From positions 1-62,976 of the forward strand of contig JADZEH010000015.1 of NCBI GenBank assembly GCA_020850635.1: DNA of 62,976 bases, in the 5' to 3' direction. Source of the stretch: Candidatus Doudnabacteria bacterium (lineage in GTDB: Bacteria > Patescibacteriota > Doudnabacteria > UBA920). A model generated the notes under the pieces. That model was not told the DNA's origin. It did no database searches and worked only from the letters and a program-made list of their open reading frames with translations. Both the position numbers and the translations under genes were made by a program. Positions 17,430-60,926 of this stretch are shown here, in pieces. Numbering within the stretch: the first letter of the stretch is position 1; each line of letters begins with the position of its first letter.

Positions 17430-17500
17430 AGCCGGAGTAGTGTCGTTAAGAAAACCATCGGAGCAAAGCGACTGGTTTTAGTACAACACCACTCCGGCTT
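17430..17500 (+). repeat. Structured intergenic repeat, copy 1 (gene-3'-end hairpin element)
   Basis: Core GTTAAGAAAACCATCGGAGCAAAGCGACTGGTTTTAGTACAAC lies inside the outer stem GCCGGAGTAGTGT/ACACCACTCCGGC. Also found at 31000-31064 (-) and 60859-60926 (+). Confidence 0.8.
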
Positions 17501-24453: not shown

Positions 24454-24747
24454 CTACGCACCTGCGGCCATCGCTTTGGCAATGGGCTTTTCGATTCCTC
24501 CTTTGGGCAGGAAGACCGTGATCATACCGCTGTCCTCGTCGAATTCGACGGTGTAGCGATCATAATAGTGTTTTACAACGGCTTCCCGCACGCTCGGATA
24601 GCTGAGTGATACCAGAAGTGCGTAGGCGCCCACTTCCTCACCGTTATCGTCGAGCATAGCGTCGATCGATCTGATGCACCTTTGGATTTTGCTGTTCTCC
24701 AGCTCCGGGTCGAGTCTCGGAGCACCGTCATCGTGATTCGTGTTCAT
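24454..24747 (-). CDS. Hypothetical acidic protein, 97 aa (G+C-rich cassette C)
   Basis: GGAGGA lies 3 nt upstream of the ATG. Has its own promoter and terminator. No family recognised. Confidence 0.6.
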   Translation of the reverse strand: MNTNHDDGAPRLDPELENSKIQRCIRSIDAMLDDNGEEVGAYALLVSLSYPSVREAVVKHYYDRYTVEFDEDSGMITVFLPKGGIEKPIAKAMAAGA

Positions 24748-30999: not shown

Positions 31000-31064
31000 C
31001 AGTTTAGTGTTGTACTAAAACCAGTCGCTCCGCTCCGATGGTTTTCTTAACAACACATAAACTG
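31000..31064 (-). repeat. Structured intergenic repeat, copy 2
   Basis: Reverse complement matches the copy-3 core with one substitution. Lies 3' of the minus-strand pth-NUDIX unit. Confidence 0.8.
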
Positions 31065-32222: not shown

Positions 32223-32585
32223 TCAGGTGGAAGCGGTTGTCGCCTCTGAGTTGAGAAGGATGATGTCCTCGCTCATCGCATATCTCTCAATCACGACCTG
32301 GCATGAGACTTTGAACTCCCGGCACGTTTCTTCGATGATCGTCCCGATCCTCTCCGCCGCAGTTCCTAACGGGGTTGTCTTCCCAACCACGACTTCGAAC
32401 AGAATGTCGACATCATATGGACCCATGCTTGCTCTGCTGTCGACGGAGATCGTGTTCGTGAAAGGCTTTTCACCTAGGCCTTCGAAAATTCTGCCCGCCT
32501 CAATGGCGTCGCAGACTTGCTTGAGGACCGTGGTGGCAGTCAAGCTGTACTTGACGCCCCGCTGTGTCAGCAGGATCTTGATCAT
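32223..32585 (-). CDS. Hypothetical protein, 120 aa (G+C-rich cassette E; distant Asp23/Gls24-like pattern)
   Basis: AGGAGAA lies 4 nt upstream of the ATG at 32585. The track's longer form starts at the TTG of the -35 box. The segment DVDILFEVVVGKTTPLGTAAERIGTIIEETCREFKVSCQVVIE resembles the Asp23 core. Confidence 0.55.
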   Translation of the reverse strand: MIKILLTQRGVKYSLTATTVLKQVCDAIEAGRIFEGLGEKPFTNTISVDSRASMGPYDVDILFEVVVGKTTPLGTAAERIGTIIEETCREFKVSCQVVIERYAMSEDIILLNSEATTAST

Positions 32586-32634
32586 TGTCTTCTCCTGTCC
32601 GTCTAAGATGTTGTCCCACAAGTGGGAACTCACT

Positions 32635-32663
32635 ATAATACTTCTTTTTGACTCCTCGGTCAA
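32635..32663 (-). promoter_or_regulatory. Putative promoter of cassette E
   Basis: Minus strand reads TTGACC, 17 nt, TATTAT. Confidence 0.5.
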
Positions 32664-42885: not shown

Positions 42886-45537
42886 ATGAATAATGAGAAC
42901 TTACAAACCAGAACCACCAACGCTTTATCGGAATTAGGTGAAAAAATCTTTTTAGACCGCTATGCCATTAAGGATGCCAAGAAAGAGACCCTAGCTATCG
43001 GGGATAAGGTTGTGGTTTGTGTGAATTTAAAAACTGGCCAACGTGAAATTGGTAGCTTAACAGAAATTGATGAAGCCGAGAAAAAAGTTACAGTTCAGCT
43101 TCGCGATGGTACTTCAGAGGTTCATGCCATCGAACATGTCGACAAGCCTTTAGAGACTGTGCCTGAACAAATGTTTGAACGTATCGCTCGTCATATCGCG
43201 AGCGTGGAAAAAACTTCTGAGCTCCAGCAGGAATGGGAAGGGAAGTTTCGTCGGTTAATGGACGATTGGCAGTACGTTCCCGCTGGTCGTATCTTTACTG
43301 GTGCTGGAACCGGACAGAATCTAACTTTTTATAATTGTTACGTTATTCCAAATCCAAAAGATAGCCGTGGTGGTATTTTTGAAACTCTAAGCCAGATGGC
43401 CGAGATTATGTCTCGTGGTGGTGGTGTTGGTATTAATGTCTCGACGCTTCGTCCACGCTACGCTTACGTTAAAGGTGTGAATGGTCGCAGCTCTGGTGCG
43501 GTGTCTTGGGCATCTTTGTACAGTTTCGTTACTGGTTTAATCGAGCAAGGTGGTAGCCGCCGTGGTGCTTTGATGCTGATTTTAAATGCCTGGCACCCTG
43601 ATGTTTTAGATTTTATTAATTCCAAGCGTGAAGCCGGTCGGATTACTAACGCTAATATTTCCGTTGGTATTACCGATGATTTTATGGCGGCAGTTAAAGC
43701 CGATGCCGATTGGGATTTAATCTTCCCTGATCCAGCTGATCCGATGTATTCCGAAAAGTGGGATGGTAACATGACGACTTGGAAAAAACTCGGTGGTAAA
43801 GTTATCAAGCACAAAACCGTTAAAGCCAAAGAGATTTGGAACAGCATTATTGAATCAGCCTGGACTTCCGCTGAACCAGGAATGTATTTTATCGATCGCG
43901 CGAATCATTATTCTAATTCTTGGTATTACGCCGATTTACCATGTACCAATCCTTGCGGTGAACAGCCACTTCCAGCCTGGGGAGTGTGTAACCTTGGTCA
44001 CGTTAACTTAGCCAAGCACTTAATTGCGGATCAAAAAGAAGTTGACTGGAACAAACTTAAAACTACAGTGCAGTACGCCGTTCGTTTTCAGGATAACGTT
44101 ATAGACGCAACCCCATACTTCTTTGATGAGAACTATAAACAGCAAATGTCTGAACGCCGTGTTGGTATGGGAACCATTGGACTTGCGGAAATGCTTATTC
44201 GTTTAGGTTTGCGTTACGGTAGCCCTGAAGCTGTGTCATTTATCGACAAACTCTATCAGTTCATCGCGGTGACATCTTACGAAACAAGTATTGAGTTAGC
44301 TCGCGAAAAAGGTGCGTTCGCTCAATTCGATGCCGAAAAGTTTTTACAAAGCGGTTACATGAAGAACATGCCGAACTATATTCGCGATTTAGTCGCAAAG
44401 TATGGGATTCGCAATGTCACGATTATGACTCAAGCGCCAACTGGAACGATTGGCACCATGGTTGGAACCTCAACCGGTATTGAACCGTTCTTCTCGTGGA
44501 CATACTTTAGAAAATCTCGTTTAGGCGTCCATGAAGAGAAAATAAAGATTGCTCAAGAATGGCTTGATGCAAATCCTGGTCAAGAACTTCCAGAATACTT
44601 TGTGACAGCCATGTCACTTACTCCGGAAGAGCATGTTCGCGTGCAAGCTGCAGTTCAACGCTGGACTGATTCGGCAATTTCCAAAACGGTTAACGCTCCA
44701 GAAAATTACACGATTGAACAAACTGCCAAACTCTATGAGATGATGTACGAACTTGGTTGTAAGGGCGGGACGATTTATCGTGATGGTAGTCGTGATGAAC
44801 AGATTCTTGCTACCGACAGTAAGAAGCTTGGAAAAGATGTTCAAGAACAAATGACCGCGATGGCCGAAGCTAAGCAAGTTCAGGTTAGTGAACAAGCTCC
44901 AGAGGTTATGTCTGTTAGTGGTGGCAATATTCAATTCAAAATTATTGCCCGTGAACGTCCACAAGTCATGCATGGCTCCACTTACAAATTGAACACCGCT
45001 TACGGTCATTTGTATGTCACGATCAATGAAGATGAGCATGGTCCATTTGAAGTCTTTGCTTCCTTGGGTAAAGCTGGTGGATTCTTCTCAGCCCAAACAG
45101 AAGCGATTACACGTATGATTAGCTTGGCTCTTCGTTCGAACATTGCGATTGAAGAAGTTTTAAGCCAACTCAAAGGAATTCGTGGTCCAGATGTCTCGTT
45201 TGCTGATGGAGAAGTTATTCATTCCTTACCAGACGCCATCGGAAAAGTTTTAGAAAAGCATTTAAAGCGTGGTGAACAGCAATTACAACTCCCACGAACC
45301 AAACAAGAAGAAAAAGCAGCTGCTGCAGCGATGGATTACGAAGGTGAAGGTGTGGCTGAAAAAGTTATAGTTGCCACTGTTGCTGAAACTTCTGATGGAA
45401 TGTTTCAAAAGAAAGCTTCAAAGTTATCCATTGCCAATTTAGGAAGTGCTCCAGTGTGCCCTTCCTGTTCCAACATGTTGATCATGGCTGAAGGCTGTAT
45501 GAACTGTCCCGCTTGTGGTTACTCGAAATGTGGCTAA
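42886..45537 (+). CDS. nrdJ: Adenosylcobalamin-dependent (class II) ribonucleotide reductase
   Basis: Single long chain with the TNPCGEQ active-site loop and a C-terminal Cys-rich tail (CPSC...CMNCPACGYSKCG). Confidence 0.9.
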   Translation: MNNENLQTRTTNALSELGEKIFLDRYAIKDAKKETLAIGDKVVVCVNLKTGQREIGSLTEIDEAEKKVTVQLRDGTSEVHAIEHVDKPLETVPEQMFERIARHIASVEKTSELQQEWEGKFRRLMDDWQYVPAGRIFTGAGTGQNLTFYNCYVIPNPKDSRGGIFETLSQMAEIMSRGGGVGINVSTLRPRYAYVKGVNGRSSGAVSWASLYSFVTGLIEQGGSRRGALMLILNAWHPDVLDFINSKREAGRITNANISVGITDDFMAAVKADADWDLIFPDPADPMYSEKWDGNMTTWKKLGGKVIKHKTVKAKEIWNSIIESAWTSAEPGMYFIDRANHYSNSWYYADLPCTNPCGEQPLPAWGVCNLGHVNLAKHLIADQKEVDWNKLKTTVQYAVRFQDNVIDATPYFFDENYKQQMSERRVGMGTIGLAEMLIRLGLRYGSPEAVSFIDKLYQFIAVTSYETSIELAREKGAFAQFDAEKFLQSGYMKNMPNYIRDLVAKYGIRNVTIMTQAPTGTIGTMVGTSTGIEPFFSWTYFRKSRLGVHEEKIKIAQEWLDANPGQELPEYFVTAMSLTPEEHVRVQAAVQRWTDSAISKTVNAPENYTIEQTAKLYEMMYELGCKGGTIYRDGSRDEQILATDSKKLGKDVQEQMTAMAEAKQVQVSEQAPEVMSVSGGNIQFKIIARERPQVMHGSTYKLNTAYGHLYVTINEDEHGPFEVFASLGKAGGFFSAQTEAITRMISLALRSNIAIEEVLSQLKGIRGPDVSFADGEVIHSLPDAIGKVLEKHLKRGEQQLQLPRTKQEEKAAAAAMDYEGEGVAEKVIVATVAETSDGMFQKKASKLSIANLGSAPVCPSCSNMLIMAEGCMNCPACGYSKCG

Positions 45538-45570
45538 ATAATTGTTGAAACAATACTTTACTTGAATATT

Positions 45571-45597
45571 AAAGGCCTCCTATCTCGGAGGCTTTTA
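45571..45597 (+). terminator. Intrinsic terminator of nrdJ
   Basis: GCCTCC-tatctc-GGAGGC followed by TTTT. Confidence 0.7.
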
Positions 45598-45603
45598 TGG
45601 CAT

Positions 45604-45643
45604 AAAAAAATCCGCGAGGAGAGCTGGGTTGCTCTCCGCGCGG
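45604..45643 (-). terminator. Intrinsic terminator of cassette F
   Basis: Minus strand reads CCGCGCGGAGAGC-aaccca-GCTCTCCTCGCGG followed by ATTTTTTT. Confidence 0.8.
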
Positions 45644-45667
45644 GGGTGCGTCGCTTGGCCCTTGGAG

Positions 45668-45943
45668 TTAGGCCTTTTCTTTGACTACACGCTTGGTGGT
45701 GATTCCGAAGCGCTTGTCGCCGCATCGGATCATGACGGGAACGACTTCGTTGTTGATTTTAACTCGTTTTGTGAATGACGTGTCTTTGTTGATCCCTGAG
45801 TTGGGAACGAAGAAGACCAGAAAAGCTTCTCCAGAGGGCTTGCTGACCTCAAGGCTAGACGGGCCCTTGTAACCGTTCCTGATCCTTGTTTCGAGTTCTC
45901 CTCGACGTCTTCGAAGCATTTCTGCGAGTTCTTCACTTTTCAT
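45668..45943 (-). CDS. Hypothetical basic protein, 91 aa (cassette F, distal gene)
   Basis: ATG preceded by GGAGGTGA. Overlaps the upstream ORF by 11 nt. G/C-ending codons. Confidence 0.6.
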   Translation of the reverse strand: MKSEELAEMLRRRRGELETRIRNGYKGPSSLEVSKPSGEAFLVFFVPNSGINKDTSFTKRVKINNEVVPVMIRCGDKRFGITTKRVVKEKA

Positions 45944-46277
45944 GAGTCATCACCTCCGCTGGTCCAGTGAAAACCTCGGCCAATTCCTTGCTCTGGGTCT
46001 CGTAGAACGTGACCAGAGCCCGATTGATCTCGGTCAAGCTGGGTACGAGATCATCTCCTGGCATCGAAAGCCAGCACTTTTCAATCTGCCGGTTGATGAT
46101 CTTGATGAGGTCGTTGTCCGCTCCGAGGTCGATGAGGTCGTAGATCATCTCGTGAACTTTCTTGACCTGTTCCTTGATTGTTTCAGTGCTCGGTACACCG
46201 CGCGCAAGAATATGCGCGGTTTGTCGTGTGAACTCATTGAGCTTGCCGAGCATCTCAATCTTTTCTCTGTCGTCCAT
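45933..46277 (-). CDS. Hypothetical helical acidic protein, 114 aa (cassette F, proximal gene)
   Basis: AAGGAGG lies 7 nt upstream of the ATG. G/C-ending codons. No family recognised. Confidence 0.6.
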   Translation of the reverse strand: MDDREKIEMLGKLNEFTRQTAHILARGVPSTETIKEQVKKVHEMIYDLIDLGADNDLIKIINRQIEKCWLSMPGDDLVPSLTEINRALVTFYETQSKELAEVFTGPAEVMTHEK

Positions 46278-46360
46278 GTTCTGGCCTCCTTGTGGCTCCC
46301 GCGAGCTGTGATTTTATCCCTAAGGATAGTATACTATAATTGAAATTTTAAGATTTGTCC

Positions 46361-46972
46361 ATGCCTTACAAGAAGAAAACAACAGATGCGGTCATTCCCA
46401 AAAAAGGATTAGTCATTTGTCACATTGGTGATGGCAAAGGCAAAACAACCGCGGCCATGGGTCTAGCCGCCCGTGCCAGTGGTGCTGGTTTAAACGTTTA
46501 CATTTTACAGTTTGTTAAAGCCAAGAAAAAAGAGACAAGGGAGCCTGGCGAATGGCCACTTTCAAACGAGATAGAGTTTTTCAATGATGTAAAAATTCCT
46601 AAAGGCATGGGTCAAATTGTAACAGAACAAGTAGGCCAAGGTTTTGTGGGTATTTTAGGTGATCGTAAACAGCGTGACGCACATCAACGTGAAGCTTTGA
46701 ATGGTTTAGAGATGGCGCGAAATATTTTACTTAAAAACGAATACCAAGTTGTCATTTTAGACGAGATCCTTTCAGCGGTTGAATTAAATTTGCTTAATGA
46801 GCAAGACATCCTCGACCTCATTGCGATCAAACCCGAGATGATCCACTTAGTTATCACTGGTCATGAAAAGCGCAAAGCTATTGTGAAAGCGTGCGACTTA
46901 GTTACTGAGATGAAGTTAGTGAAGCACCCTTACTACGATGGCGTTCTTGCACAGAGGGGGATTGATTTTTAA
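46361..46972 (+). CDS. cobO: ATP:cob(I)alamin adenosyltransferase (CobA/CobO/BtuR family)
   Basis: P-loop GDGKGKTTAAMG and VILDEI. ATG at 46361; a TTG at 46355 is an alternative start. Confidence 0.85.
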   Translation: MPYKKKTTDAVIPKKGLVICHIGDGKGKTTAAMGLAARASGAGLNVYILQFVKAKKKETREPGEWPLSNEIEFFNDVKIPKGMGQIVTEQVGQGFVGILGDRKQRDAHQREALNGLEMARNILLKNEYQVVILDEILSAVELNLLNEQDILDLIAIKPEMIHLVITGHEKRKAIVKACDLVTEMKLVKHPYYDGVLAQRGIDF

Positions 46973-47009
46973 ATTTAGAGTCATATACTAAGAGTAGAAA
47001 TATACACCT

Positions 47010-47132
47010 ATGAAATACACACTCGTTTTATCACTACTTGGTTTGTCACTTCTTGCCGCAGGGTGCGTGAAGCAGGGTTCACCGCTTGCTGAAGAAGCGC
47101 CTCTAGAAGTTCAACAGCCAGTTACAAAGTAA
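47010..47132 (+). CDS. Small putative lipoprotein, 40 aa
   Basis: MKYTLVLSLLGLSLLAAGC has a lipobox-like motif. Below the ORF-track length cutoff. Weak SD. Confidence 0.4.
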   Translation: MKYTLVLSLLGLSLLAAGCVKQGSPLAEEAPLEVQQPVTK

Positions 47133-47137
47133 TCAGG

Positions 47138-47362
47138 ATGATAGTTAAAGTCGTGGTCCATCCGAAATCGAAGCAACCCCGCATTCTGGAAGACGATGCG
47201 GGTGTTTTGCATGTCTATGTAAGTGAGATACCGGTTGGTGGTAAGGCTAATGATGCTGTACGAAAAGCCTTGATAAAACATTTTGATACGGAACGATGGC
47301 GAGTGACTTTATTGAAAGGCCATTTAAGTAAGCACAAGCAGTACGAGATAGTCCTTGATTAG
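47138..47362 (+). CDS. DUF167 (YggU) family protein
   Basis: VHPKSK...GGKANDAVRKALIKHF...V.LLKGH.SK.K pattern. Confidence 0.7.
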   Translation: MIVKVVVHPKSKQPRILEDDAGVLHVYVSEIPVGGKANDAVRKALIKHFDTERWRVTLLKGHLSKHKQYEIVLD

Positions 47363-47419
47363 TTGGCAGTGATGTGATAGAGTGTGATGTCGAAGAACAA
47401 CCGTGGGGAGGATAGCAAG

Positions 47420-47551
47420 ATGGAAGAGCGGTATCGAAGGGTAGTTCAGGGGGTACGCCGAGTTACGACGGTAGAAGTCATCAAAATCGTGGTGTACGTG
47501 GCTTTGATAGGCACCCTACTGCTGTGGATCTGCCTGCCGGAGCACTGGTAG
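47420..47551 (+). CDS. Tiny membrane peptide, 43 aa (cassette G, first ORF)
   Basis: GGGGAGGA lies 7 nt upstream of the ATG. Arg-rich N-terminus followed by one TM helix. Below the ORF-track cutoff. Confidence 0.45.
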   Translation: MEERYRRVVQGVRRVTTVEVIKIVVYVALIGTLLLWICLPEHW

Positions 47552-47576
47552 GCATCTGCTGGCAAGGGAGGATTAC

Positions 47577-47789
47577 GTGAAGAAGAATGAGGAAGTGTTG
47601 ACTTTGGGACTCAGAGTCCTTTTGGCGTTCATCGTCGTGATGTGGGTCCTGCTCATGTTCAAGAGCTGTTCTCACCCAAGTGGGCGGATGCCCAGCACGT
47701 TTCTGGTCGTTTCTGCGATCAACAGCCGGCCAGTGGTTACTCAACCACTGGCCGTATTTATTTGCGTAAACCATCGAAATATGATATAA
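47577..47789 (+). CDS. Small membrane protein, 70 aa (cassette G, second ORF)
   Basis: GTG start with AAGGGAGGA upstream. One TM helix (LRVLLAFIVVMWVLLMF). Confidence 0.45.
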   Translation: MKKNEEVLTLGLRVLLAFIVVMWVLLMFKSCSHPSGRMPSTFLVVSAINSRPVVTQPLAVFICVNHRNMI

Positions 47790-47877
47790 TACCTGTATGA
47801 AAAATCTGTTGTCACAAATTTTCGTCCATACCCAGCCTCTCGTGTAGAGGTTCTTTGAGTTGTTACAGAAACACCCA

Positions 47878-47901
47878 AAGCCTCTACAGAGAGGTTTTTT
47901 T
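47878..47901 (+). terminator. Intrinsic terminator between cassette G and hisS (possible hisS leader attenuator)
   Basis: CCTCT-acag-AGAGG followed by TTTTTTT. Confidence 0.6.
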
Positions 47902-47957
47902 GTTTGCCTAGTTCCAGAGAGTAACTATTAAATGGTATGATATACGAAAGGAAATCT

Positions 47958-60858: not shown

Positions 60859-60926
60859 AGGCGGTTTGTGTTGTTAAGAAAACCATCGGAGCGAAGCGAC
60901 TGGTTTTAGTACAACACAAACCGCCT
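60859..60926 (+). repeat. Structured intergenic repeat, copy 3
   Basis: Outer stem AGGCGGTTTGTGTTG/CAACACAAACCGCCT encloses the conserved core. Lies directly 3' of nusB. Confidence 0.8.

Follow-up and report, generated by a model that had tools for sequence, protein, structure and literature searches.

Between the genes nrdJ and cobA of a Doudnabacteria genome we have found a small operon of two overlapping genes. Its sequence and that of its relatives show that it is accessory cargo: it is restricted to one lineage, it is horizontally exchangeable and it is placed in a conserved slot which extends from a promoter and Shine-Dalgarno site to a terminator. The operon is found on the minus strand in positions 45604–46361 of the window, by which we mean the whole stretch of 62,976 nt analysed here (contig JADZEH010000015.1 of assembly GCA_020850635.1). 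We are highly confident that it is a real, coupled accessory operon in a variable slot. As such, it is a new orphan member of a familiar class, the small accessory operons found in variable regions. What is less usual is that the expression slot is conserved while its cargo can be exchanged.

The first gene, ORF1 (45933–46277, minus), codes for a protein of 114 aa with pI 4.9, predicted to form a four-helix bundle; it is the more variable partner. The second one, ORF2 (45668–45943, minus), codes for 91 aa with pI 10.2, with an Arg-rich N-terminal helix and five strands in the predicted structure. ORF1 has a Shine-Dalgarno site AAGGAGG (46291–46285, minus) 7 nt 5' of its ATG. Both genes overlap by 11 nt: the ATG of ORF2 falls inside the last codons of ORF1 and its Shine-Dalgarno site, GGAGGTGA (45950–45957, minus), is located within the 3' end of ORF1, an arrangement for translational coupling. 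The operon ends with an intrinsic terminator (45604–45643, minus), formed by a GC-rich hairpin (45611–45643) followed by U7 (45604–45610). Its stem has 12 pairs with single-base bulges, and the 65-nt stretch which contains it folds with -27.6 kcal/mol (z = -3.7 versus shuffles). On the left-hand side, outside the cassette, nrdJ has its own terminator on the plus strand (about 45570–45600): an 11-bp stem followed by UUUUAU, with -16.6 kcal/mol and z = -3.9. All these elements of the cassette had been described in a first-pass annotation of this DNA: we have found the two minus-strand ORFs, their Shine-Dalgarno sites, the 11-nt overlap and the terminator where it had placed them, and the calculated pI values agree with its description of an acidic first product and a basic second one.

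The same annotation considered the pair as a translationally coupled bicistronic unit with its own promoter and terminator, which is also what we find. A sigma-70-like promoter site is present at 46333–46361 (minus): TGGACA, a 17-nt spacer and TATAGT, with 10 of the 12 consensus positions. It is similar to a promoter repeat of the host, TTGACA-N17-TATACT (family D2). Neither the promoter motif nor the terminator hairpin of the cassette has a second copy within the window. The -35 box (46361–46356, minus) overlaps the ATG of cobA, while the -10 box (46338–46333, minus) overlaps the -10 box of cobA, TATAAT (46335–46340, plus). The 5' UTR of the cassette (46278–46326, minus) has about 49 nt, which include the AAGGAGG; it probably carries the cobA promoter as well, on the opposite strand. 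Folding of this leader as RNA gives no significant structure (z = -0.8). A palindrome at the -10 position, ATAGTATACTAT, was considered as an operator specific for the cargo and was rejected: it corresponds to the overlapping divergent -10 boxes of the cassette and cobA, and it is imperfect in the related contigs L088 and L091. The two -10 boxes are back to back and the -35 box lies over the start of cobA; as a side observation, the two promoters may be mutually exclusive, and transcription of the cargo could affect the expression of cobA in this region of overlap (46333–46363).

The composition of the cassette is foreign. Its G+C content is 52%, versus 42–44% in the surroundings, and GC3 reaches 67% in ORF1 and 55% in ORF2, versus a median of 38% in the window. 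At position 45960 the window has a T, whereas every other contig and run has a C; this change is synonymous in ORF1 and private to this assembly.

Both ORFs are real genes, as shown by their diverged homologues. An exhaustive phmmer search with ORF2 among 1.84 billion representative proteins found three true relatives, with 59%, 52% and 40% identity, and relatives of ORF1 are encoded at the same loci. Homologues of the pair with 38–59% identity keep both frames, with pN well below pS. In codon-level comparisons dN/dS is 0.19–0.27 for ORF2 and 0.32–0.54 for ORF1, versus 0.016–0.03 for the flanking cobA. When the window is compared with L088, the two proteins of the pair have 41% and 50% identity, while the values are 94% for cobA, 96% for hisS and 99% for nrdR; synonymous sites of cobA are saturated in this comparison. 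Thus both ORFs are under purifying selection, yet their non-synonymous sites change over ten times faster than those of the genes beside them. The coupling signals are also kept: the same overlap and internal Shine-Dalgarno site are present in two of the three homologous pairs. In L087 we find the same internal Shine-Dalgarno site with an 11-nt overlap, in L088 the same Shine-Dalgarno site with a 3-nt gap instead. Conservation of the frames with pN below pS, together with that of the coupling signals, indicates that this anatomy is more than chance.

GC-rich DNA does give long ORFs on both strands, such as an antisense ORF of 133 aa (45942–46343) in this very spacer, and metatranscriptome contigs from one sample which holds the organism do not cover the locus. 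It could then be thought that ORF1 and ORF2 are spurious frames in a GC-rich spacer. We consider this extremely unlikely: the frames kept with pN well below pS at 38–59% identity count as its refutation, the promoter, Shine-Dalgarno sites and terminator are conserved, and the single-sequence AF2 models of both proteins are confident.

The pair is found in three of the four allele groups which we have detected: the window with L001–L006, L088–L090, and L087. In this way the co-occurrence of homologues as a pair, a check suggested in the first-pass annotation, has given a positive answer. An identical ORF1 is present in the same context in six contigs. In the fourth group (L091 and L094, identical in two samples) both genes are damaged: ORF1 is reduced to a mini-ORF of 21 aa, while ORF2 has a GTG start and a 17-nt deletion which truncates its C-terminus, so that the last strand is gone. 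L087 is a contig of 1.1 kb with three genes and the same terminator as the window. Its genes are a homologue of ORF1 (C-terminus only), a homologue of ORF2 and a second paralogue of ORF1 with 26% identity. The neighbour of these genes is not nrdJ, which indicates that another context is possible for the module together with its terminator.

Exchange between strains is apparent when closely related contigs are compared. In strain L004 the cobA gene differs from the window in 47 of 618 nt (44 of them in third positions), versus a single difference in the 528 nt of ORF1 and ORF2; the break point is in the leader. L001 and L002 have an identical tract in positions 45538–47936, while their hisS differs by 5%. 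Such tracts are mosaic recombination tracts of a population which recombines, and they show a recent exchange of the cassette between strains. A selective sweep specific for the cassette was discarded, since in different strains the identical tracts also span either the 3' end of nrdJ or cobA and yggU: they reach beyond the cassette, as expected for ordinary mosaic recombination. In a soil metagenome (run X19) there are short contigs with a depth of 2–3x in which the cassette is about 100% identical. They turn to unlike sequence at window positions 45881 and 46294, GC-rich in the latter case. Either these contigs are chimeras of the assembly, or they hint at a donor or at a further genomic context.

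The position of the cassette is a region of great variability. A search with CobA finds its relatives in uncultured Patescibacteria, in metagenome-assembled genomes labelled either Candidatus Doudnabacteria or 'Saccharibacteria'; the DNA of the window is found in wastewater, activated-sludge, bioreactor and aquatic metagenomes. The order nrdR-nrdJ-cobA is kept in about 40 related loci, while the spacer between nrdJ and cobA ranges from 6 to 3152 nt in this clade. It may contain GIY-YIG nucleases, SAM methyltransferases, a DHFR-like gene, NUDIX/HD proteins, small membrane proteins, a small 'YHVLxGGG' family, or nothing. Since nrdJ and cobA are only 6–106 nt apart in some related genomes, the cassette does split one gene from the other, as had been proposed at first. 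The pair is thus an insertion into an ancestrally tight junction, which behaves as a plasticity hotspot.

The window was aligned with L088, L091 and L007. The last one is the closest species, with 98% identity in nrdJ and 95% in CobA at the protein level. Promoter, leader, AAGGAGG and terminator hairpin are conserved in this alignment, whereas the coding content differs. The promoter is kept in L088 and L091, and in part also in L007; the 5' UTR is about 90% conserved between the window and L088, which is due, at least in part, to the cobA promoter on the plus strand. The terminator is kept with differing cargo in L007, L088, L091 and L087. In L007 its hairpin is 94% identical, versus 83–85% for the flanking genes. 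This species shares with the window only 45601–45651 and the sequence from 46352 onward: its cargo is an unrelated acidic ORF of 100 aa with GC3 64%. Neither this ORF nor the other ORFs of the spacer have any homology with ORF1 or ORF2. Metagenome contigs from X15 leave the window sequence exactly at 45646 and 46303, and contain a further cargo which again starts right after an AAGGAGG. The exchangeable cargo segment is therefore placed at 45647–46302 (minus): outside these limits the sequence is common to other strains and species, and within them it is not.

The location between nrdJ and cobA, together with the overlap of the cassette promoter with the cobA promoter and start codon, by which transcription could interfere, might suggest a joint function of the pair and its neighbours: it could, for instance, regulate the B12-dependent ribonucleotide reductase NrdJ or the corrinoid adenosyltransferase, or help in their assembly. 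Comparative data largely refute such a role, which appears very unlikely. The pair is on the opposite strand and has its own terminator; about 40 relatives keep nrdR-nrdJ-cobA with an unrelated cargo or none; the closest species has an unrelated gene in the slot; the same cassette is found with both deep alleles of nrdJ; and in L087 the neighbour is different.

The nrdJ gene itself (42886–45537) shows two deep alleles in this species cluster, with a breakpoint near 44896. In L001, L003 and L088 its protein has about 50–57% identity upstream of this position and is nearly identical downstream, while the adjacent nrdR is 99–100% identical in the same contigs. These alleles suggest that the catalytic part of this essential gene has recombined or been replaced. 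Six related genomes (L009, L010, L016, L018, L023 and L046) have GIY-YIG nuclease genes, with the motif YIGVTNxLxKRVWQHK, in the nrdJ-cobA spacer. It might be speculated that free-standing nucleases of the homing type drive the variability of the junction and the mosaicism of nrdJ. A different small family is found in the same spacer on the plus strand of L022 (5597–5950), L023 (5793–5972) and L027 (5670–5963), with the motif Y(R/I/K)xxH(V/I)xxGG ... FDFP.

Other features of the window may be mentioned here. Three small orphan ORFs on the minus strand (141–575, 24454–24747 and 32223–32663) have GC3 63–69%, versus the median of 38%. Each one is followed by a strong GC-rich hairpin with a T-run; they have no Pfam match and no sequence relation to ORF1 or ORF2, and probably correspond to other cassettes of the first-pass annotation. 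A repeat of 50–54 nt with 94–96% identity is present at 17440–17489 (plus), 31004–31057 (inverted) and 60867–60920 (plus). Its ends are self-complementary, GTGTTGTTAAGAAAACCATCGGAGCGAAGCGACTGGTTTTAGTACAACAC; a REP- or MITE-like element is one possible interpretation, a small structured RNA is another. The spacer between yggU and hisS (47363–47936) is GC-rich (about 51%) and contains two small membrane-like ORFs on the plus strand (47384–47551 and 47577–47789); gene callers place there a minus-strand ORF of 97 aa instead.

Several of these data could indicate that the cassette is cargo derived from a phage or mobile element of Patescibacteria: a moron-like pair (for example for superinfection exclusion or anti-defence), captured at a recombination hotspot and then spread among strains through homologous recombination in its conserved flanks. 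All alleles have a high GC3 despite saturated divergence, and so has the unrelated cargo of L007; the three orphan cassettes just described share a high GC3 and strong terminators; strains with diverged flanks have nearly the same cassette; in L087 the module and its terminator are found beside a different neighbour; and in relatives the same spacer contains GIY-YIG nuclease genes. On the other hand, no relative was found in viral contigs (IMG/VR) or JGI metagenomes, where a scan for the terminator pattern was included, nor by tblastn in INPHARED phages and PLSDB plasmids. No integrase, transposase, target-site duplication or terminal inverted or direct repeats accompany the cassette. Furthermore, when the window is compared with L088, synonymous sites of the pair have diverged to the same order as those of cobA, which is compatible with a long vertical residence. 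Overall we find an origin of this kind rather unlikely.

Neither protein family has been described, and both are tiny. Four allele groups are all that we find in about 15 billion proteins, with searches of 1.84 billion representatives and 5.8 billion clusters, and all four belong to one Doudnabacteria-like lineage of Patescibacteria from wastewater or aquatic samples. A word-indexed search of the 5.8 billion clusters returned only the queries themselves, and a profile search with ORF1 found only members already known. Two candidates were rejected. Giant repeat proteins in the phmmer list of ORF2 are due to a spurious local match of 34 aa to Cna_B repeats, which is summed over many copies and falls in an insertion specific to the ORF2 of the window. 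A protein of 189 aa (P0003) looked like a Rosetta-stone fusion of both partners; in the DNA a TAG stop separates the two parts, and translation of the locus does not yield P0003, which presumably results from a gene caller reading through the stop.

Searches for known domains gave no result either. With both proteins and all their homologues, Pfam, NCBIfam, PADLOC and PHROGs gave only noise below threshold; the component models of PADLOC-DB v2, for described or candidate systems, matched neither protein nor any homologue, and sequence searches of the PDB found no true match. Profile matches of ORF1 to de novo designed helical repeats in the PDB are compositional and were dismissed. AF2 models were built for each protein from its single sequence. 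ORF1 is modelled as a four-helix bundle with pLDDT 82, in which no RHH, HTH or AbrB-type DNA-binding domain is recognised. ORF2 has one N-terminal helix and five strands, with pLDDT 78. Foldseek had been recommended for both products: in the PDB the ORF1 model finds only generic or designed four-helix bundles (best E = 0.1), while all matches of the single-sequence ORF2 model in the PDB and in the viral library BFVD have TM <0.4. The initial impression, namely the absence of any known toxin or antitoxin fold, is thus maintained in both the PDB sequence and the Foldseek searches.

The two families differ in the nature of their invariant positions. ORF2 has 21, many of them polar, including R22, Y25, N48, C74, G75, D76 and R78; they form the motifs IRNGYxG and VMI(K/R)CGDxRF. 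ORF1 has only four, L81, L88, F91 and Y92, all hydrophobic or aromatic. This asymmetry fits an active ORF2 with ORF1 as its binding partner.

The explanation which we prefer, though only tentatively, is an accessory operon in which ORF2 is an effector and ORF1 its neutraliser. The two products would be made in coupled amounts and would associate as a stoichiometric acid-base heterocomplex; that they form a complex is the part of the proposal which we regard as rather probable. ORF2, basic and better conserved, would be the active component, probably a nucleic-acid-directed binder or enzyme, given its invariant R22, Y25, N48, C74, D76 and R78 and its Arg-rich N-terminal helix. ORF1, acidic, fast-evolving and with almost no invariant polar residues, would bind and neutralise it. 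The result would be an effector-inhibitor system with a toxin-antitoxin-like logic, built from families outside the known toxin, antitoxin and defence families.

A toxin-antitoxin, addiction or defence function with ORF2 as the effector is plausible, without being likely. The first-pass annotation had proposed a candidate pair of this kind on the basis of its layout. The layout and the charge complementarity stand; PADLOC, Pfam, NCBIfam, PHROGs, PDB and Foldseek are all empty. Such a logic is favoured by the layout and the coupling, by the complementary charges, by an upstream partner which evolves faster and by the location in a hotspot, as well as by the extra ORF1 paralogue in L087 and by the fact that the only allele without ORF1 has a truncated ORF2. 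It is disfavoured by the lack of a toxin fold, of an antitoxin DNA-binding domain in ORF1 and of any match to defence models, and also by an extremely narrow, non-mobile distribution, in one lineage and in no phage or plasmid. The persistence of most of ORF2 without ORF1 in L091 is awkward for a toxin, unless the truncation inactivates it.

The same evidence of coupling and charge would also be found in a non-toxic accessory heterodimer, in which ORF2, small and basic, would bind nucleic acids or have a regulatory role and ORF1 would be its acidic chaperone, adaptor or anti-factor: a dispensable cargo, specific to a niche, with no role in addiction or defence. We consider it possible rather than probable. 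The spacer of relatives contains mundane genes (methyltransferases, DHFR-like, NUDIX, small membrane proteins), signatures of toxins are absent in the library and fold searches, L091 and L094 retain most of ORF2 in the absence of ORF1, and the distribution is narrow. However, very fast non-synonymous evolution and an extra ORF1 paralogue in L087 are more typical of genes involved in conflicts, and no DNA- or RNA-binding domain was found either.

If the effector-neutraliser reading which we prefer is right, the pair would be a new toxin-antitoxin or defence family from the Patescibacteria, which are poorly studied, ultra-small and episymbiotic, and its basic component would have a predicted fold which matches nothing solved. 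A bolder version, which appears quite improbable to us, is a toxin-antitoxin or abortive-infection family private to Patescibacteria, whose small basic effector would have a fold not seen before and whose neutraliser would be a four-helix bundle, both carried in a plug-and-play chromosomal slot. Its cargo would be swapped by natural transformation and recombination without any integrase, and the conserved promoter with its Shine-Dalgarno site and the terminator would act as homology arms for the exchange of unrelated cargo. Whatever its function, the locus is a clean natural case of an intergenic hotspot in which coding cargo is exchanged between conserved expression signals. It may be useful to understand how accessory genes are still sampled by streamlined genomes of about 1 Mb. 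For the moment it counts as one among many orphan accessory cassettes of such genomes, and this window contains at least three more.

We will finally compare the cassette with known systems. It is similar to type II toxin-antitoxin pairs, with the layout of relBE or parDE, by its two small co-directional genes, acidic then basic, with overlapping stop and start; by its own promoter and terminator; by its accessory character, foreign composition and variable region; and by an upstream partner which evolves faster. Direct comparison supports this likeness: the adjacent small genes are coupled, coupling is kept in L087 and the Shine-Dalgarno context in L088, and the partners co-occur in three of the four allele groups, L091/L094 being the exception. 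The differences concern the proteins. No RelE/ParE, MazF/CcdB, PIN, HicA, Doc/Fic, GNAT, Zeta or similar fold is apparent in the single-sequence AF2 models, and the four-helix bundle of ORF1 is devoid of RHH, HTH, AbrB and Phd/YefM domains. Typical toxin-antitoxin families are promiscuous in their distribution, with a patchy spread over unrelated genomes, plasmids and phages, whereas this one is found in one lineage only; one allele group keeps most of ORF2 without ORF1. The pair is toxin-antitoxin-like in layout only, and is no member of a known toxin-antitoxin or defence family.

Pairs of a nuclease and its inhibitor, such as colicin DNase-Im and barnase-barstar, are an analogy in which a small protein, acidic and helical, is likewise paired with a small basic one of alpha+beta type, and one partner diverges fast. 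Here there is no catalytic motif or fold match, the gene order differs from that of colicins, and the cassette has no secretion or delivery domain nor a signal peptide. The pair differs from HEPN-MNT systems by the absence of the Rx4-6H motif: R18 and H22 of ORF1 have the spacing Rx3H and are not conserved (H22 is E in L088, and both residues are W in the L087 paralogue), while ORF2 has no NTase match. It also differs from integron cassettes: its hairpin is found once in the window and is a canonical U7 terminator, there are no flanking direct or inverted repeats and no cassette array, and the neighbours are housekeeping genes.

Free-standing GIY-YIG homing endonucleases near nrd genes are known from T-even phages. 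The locus resembles such insertions by the GIY-YIG genes in the spacer of relatives and by the nrdJ breakpoint with its two deep alleles; it is different by the lack of a nuclease domain in the cassette of the window. There is also a resemblance in organization with plasticity hotspots or variable islets between core genes: a fixed position, unrelated accessory genes and an exchange which apparently takes place through conserved flanks. The slot differs from them in that it has no integrase, attC-like repeats or transposase, and the flanks which are kept in the close species cluster are functional expression signals, so that different coding cargo comes under the control of one and the same slot.
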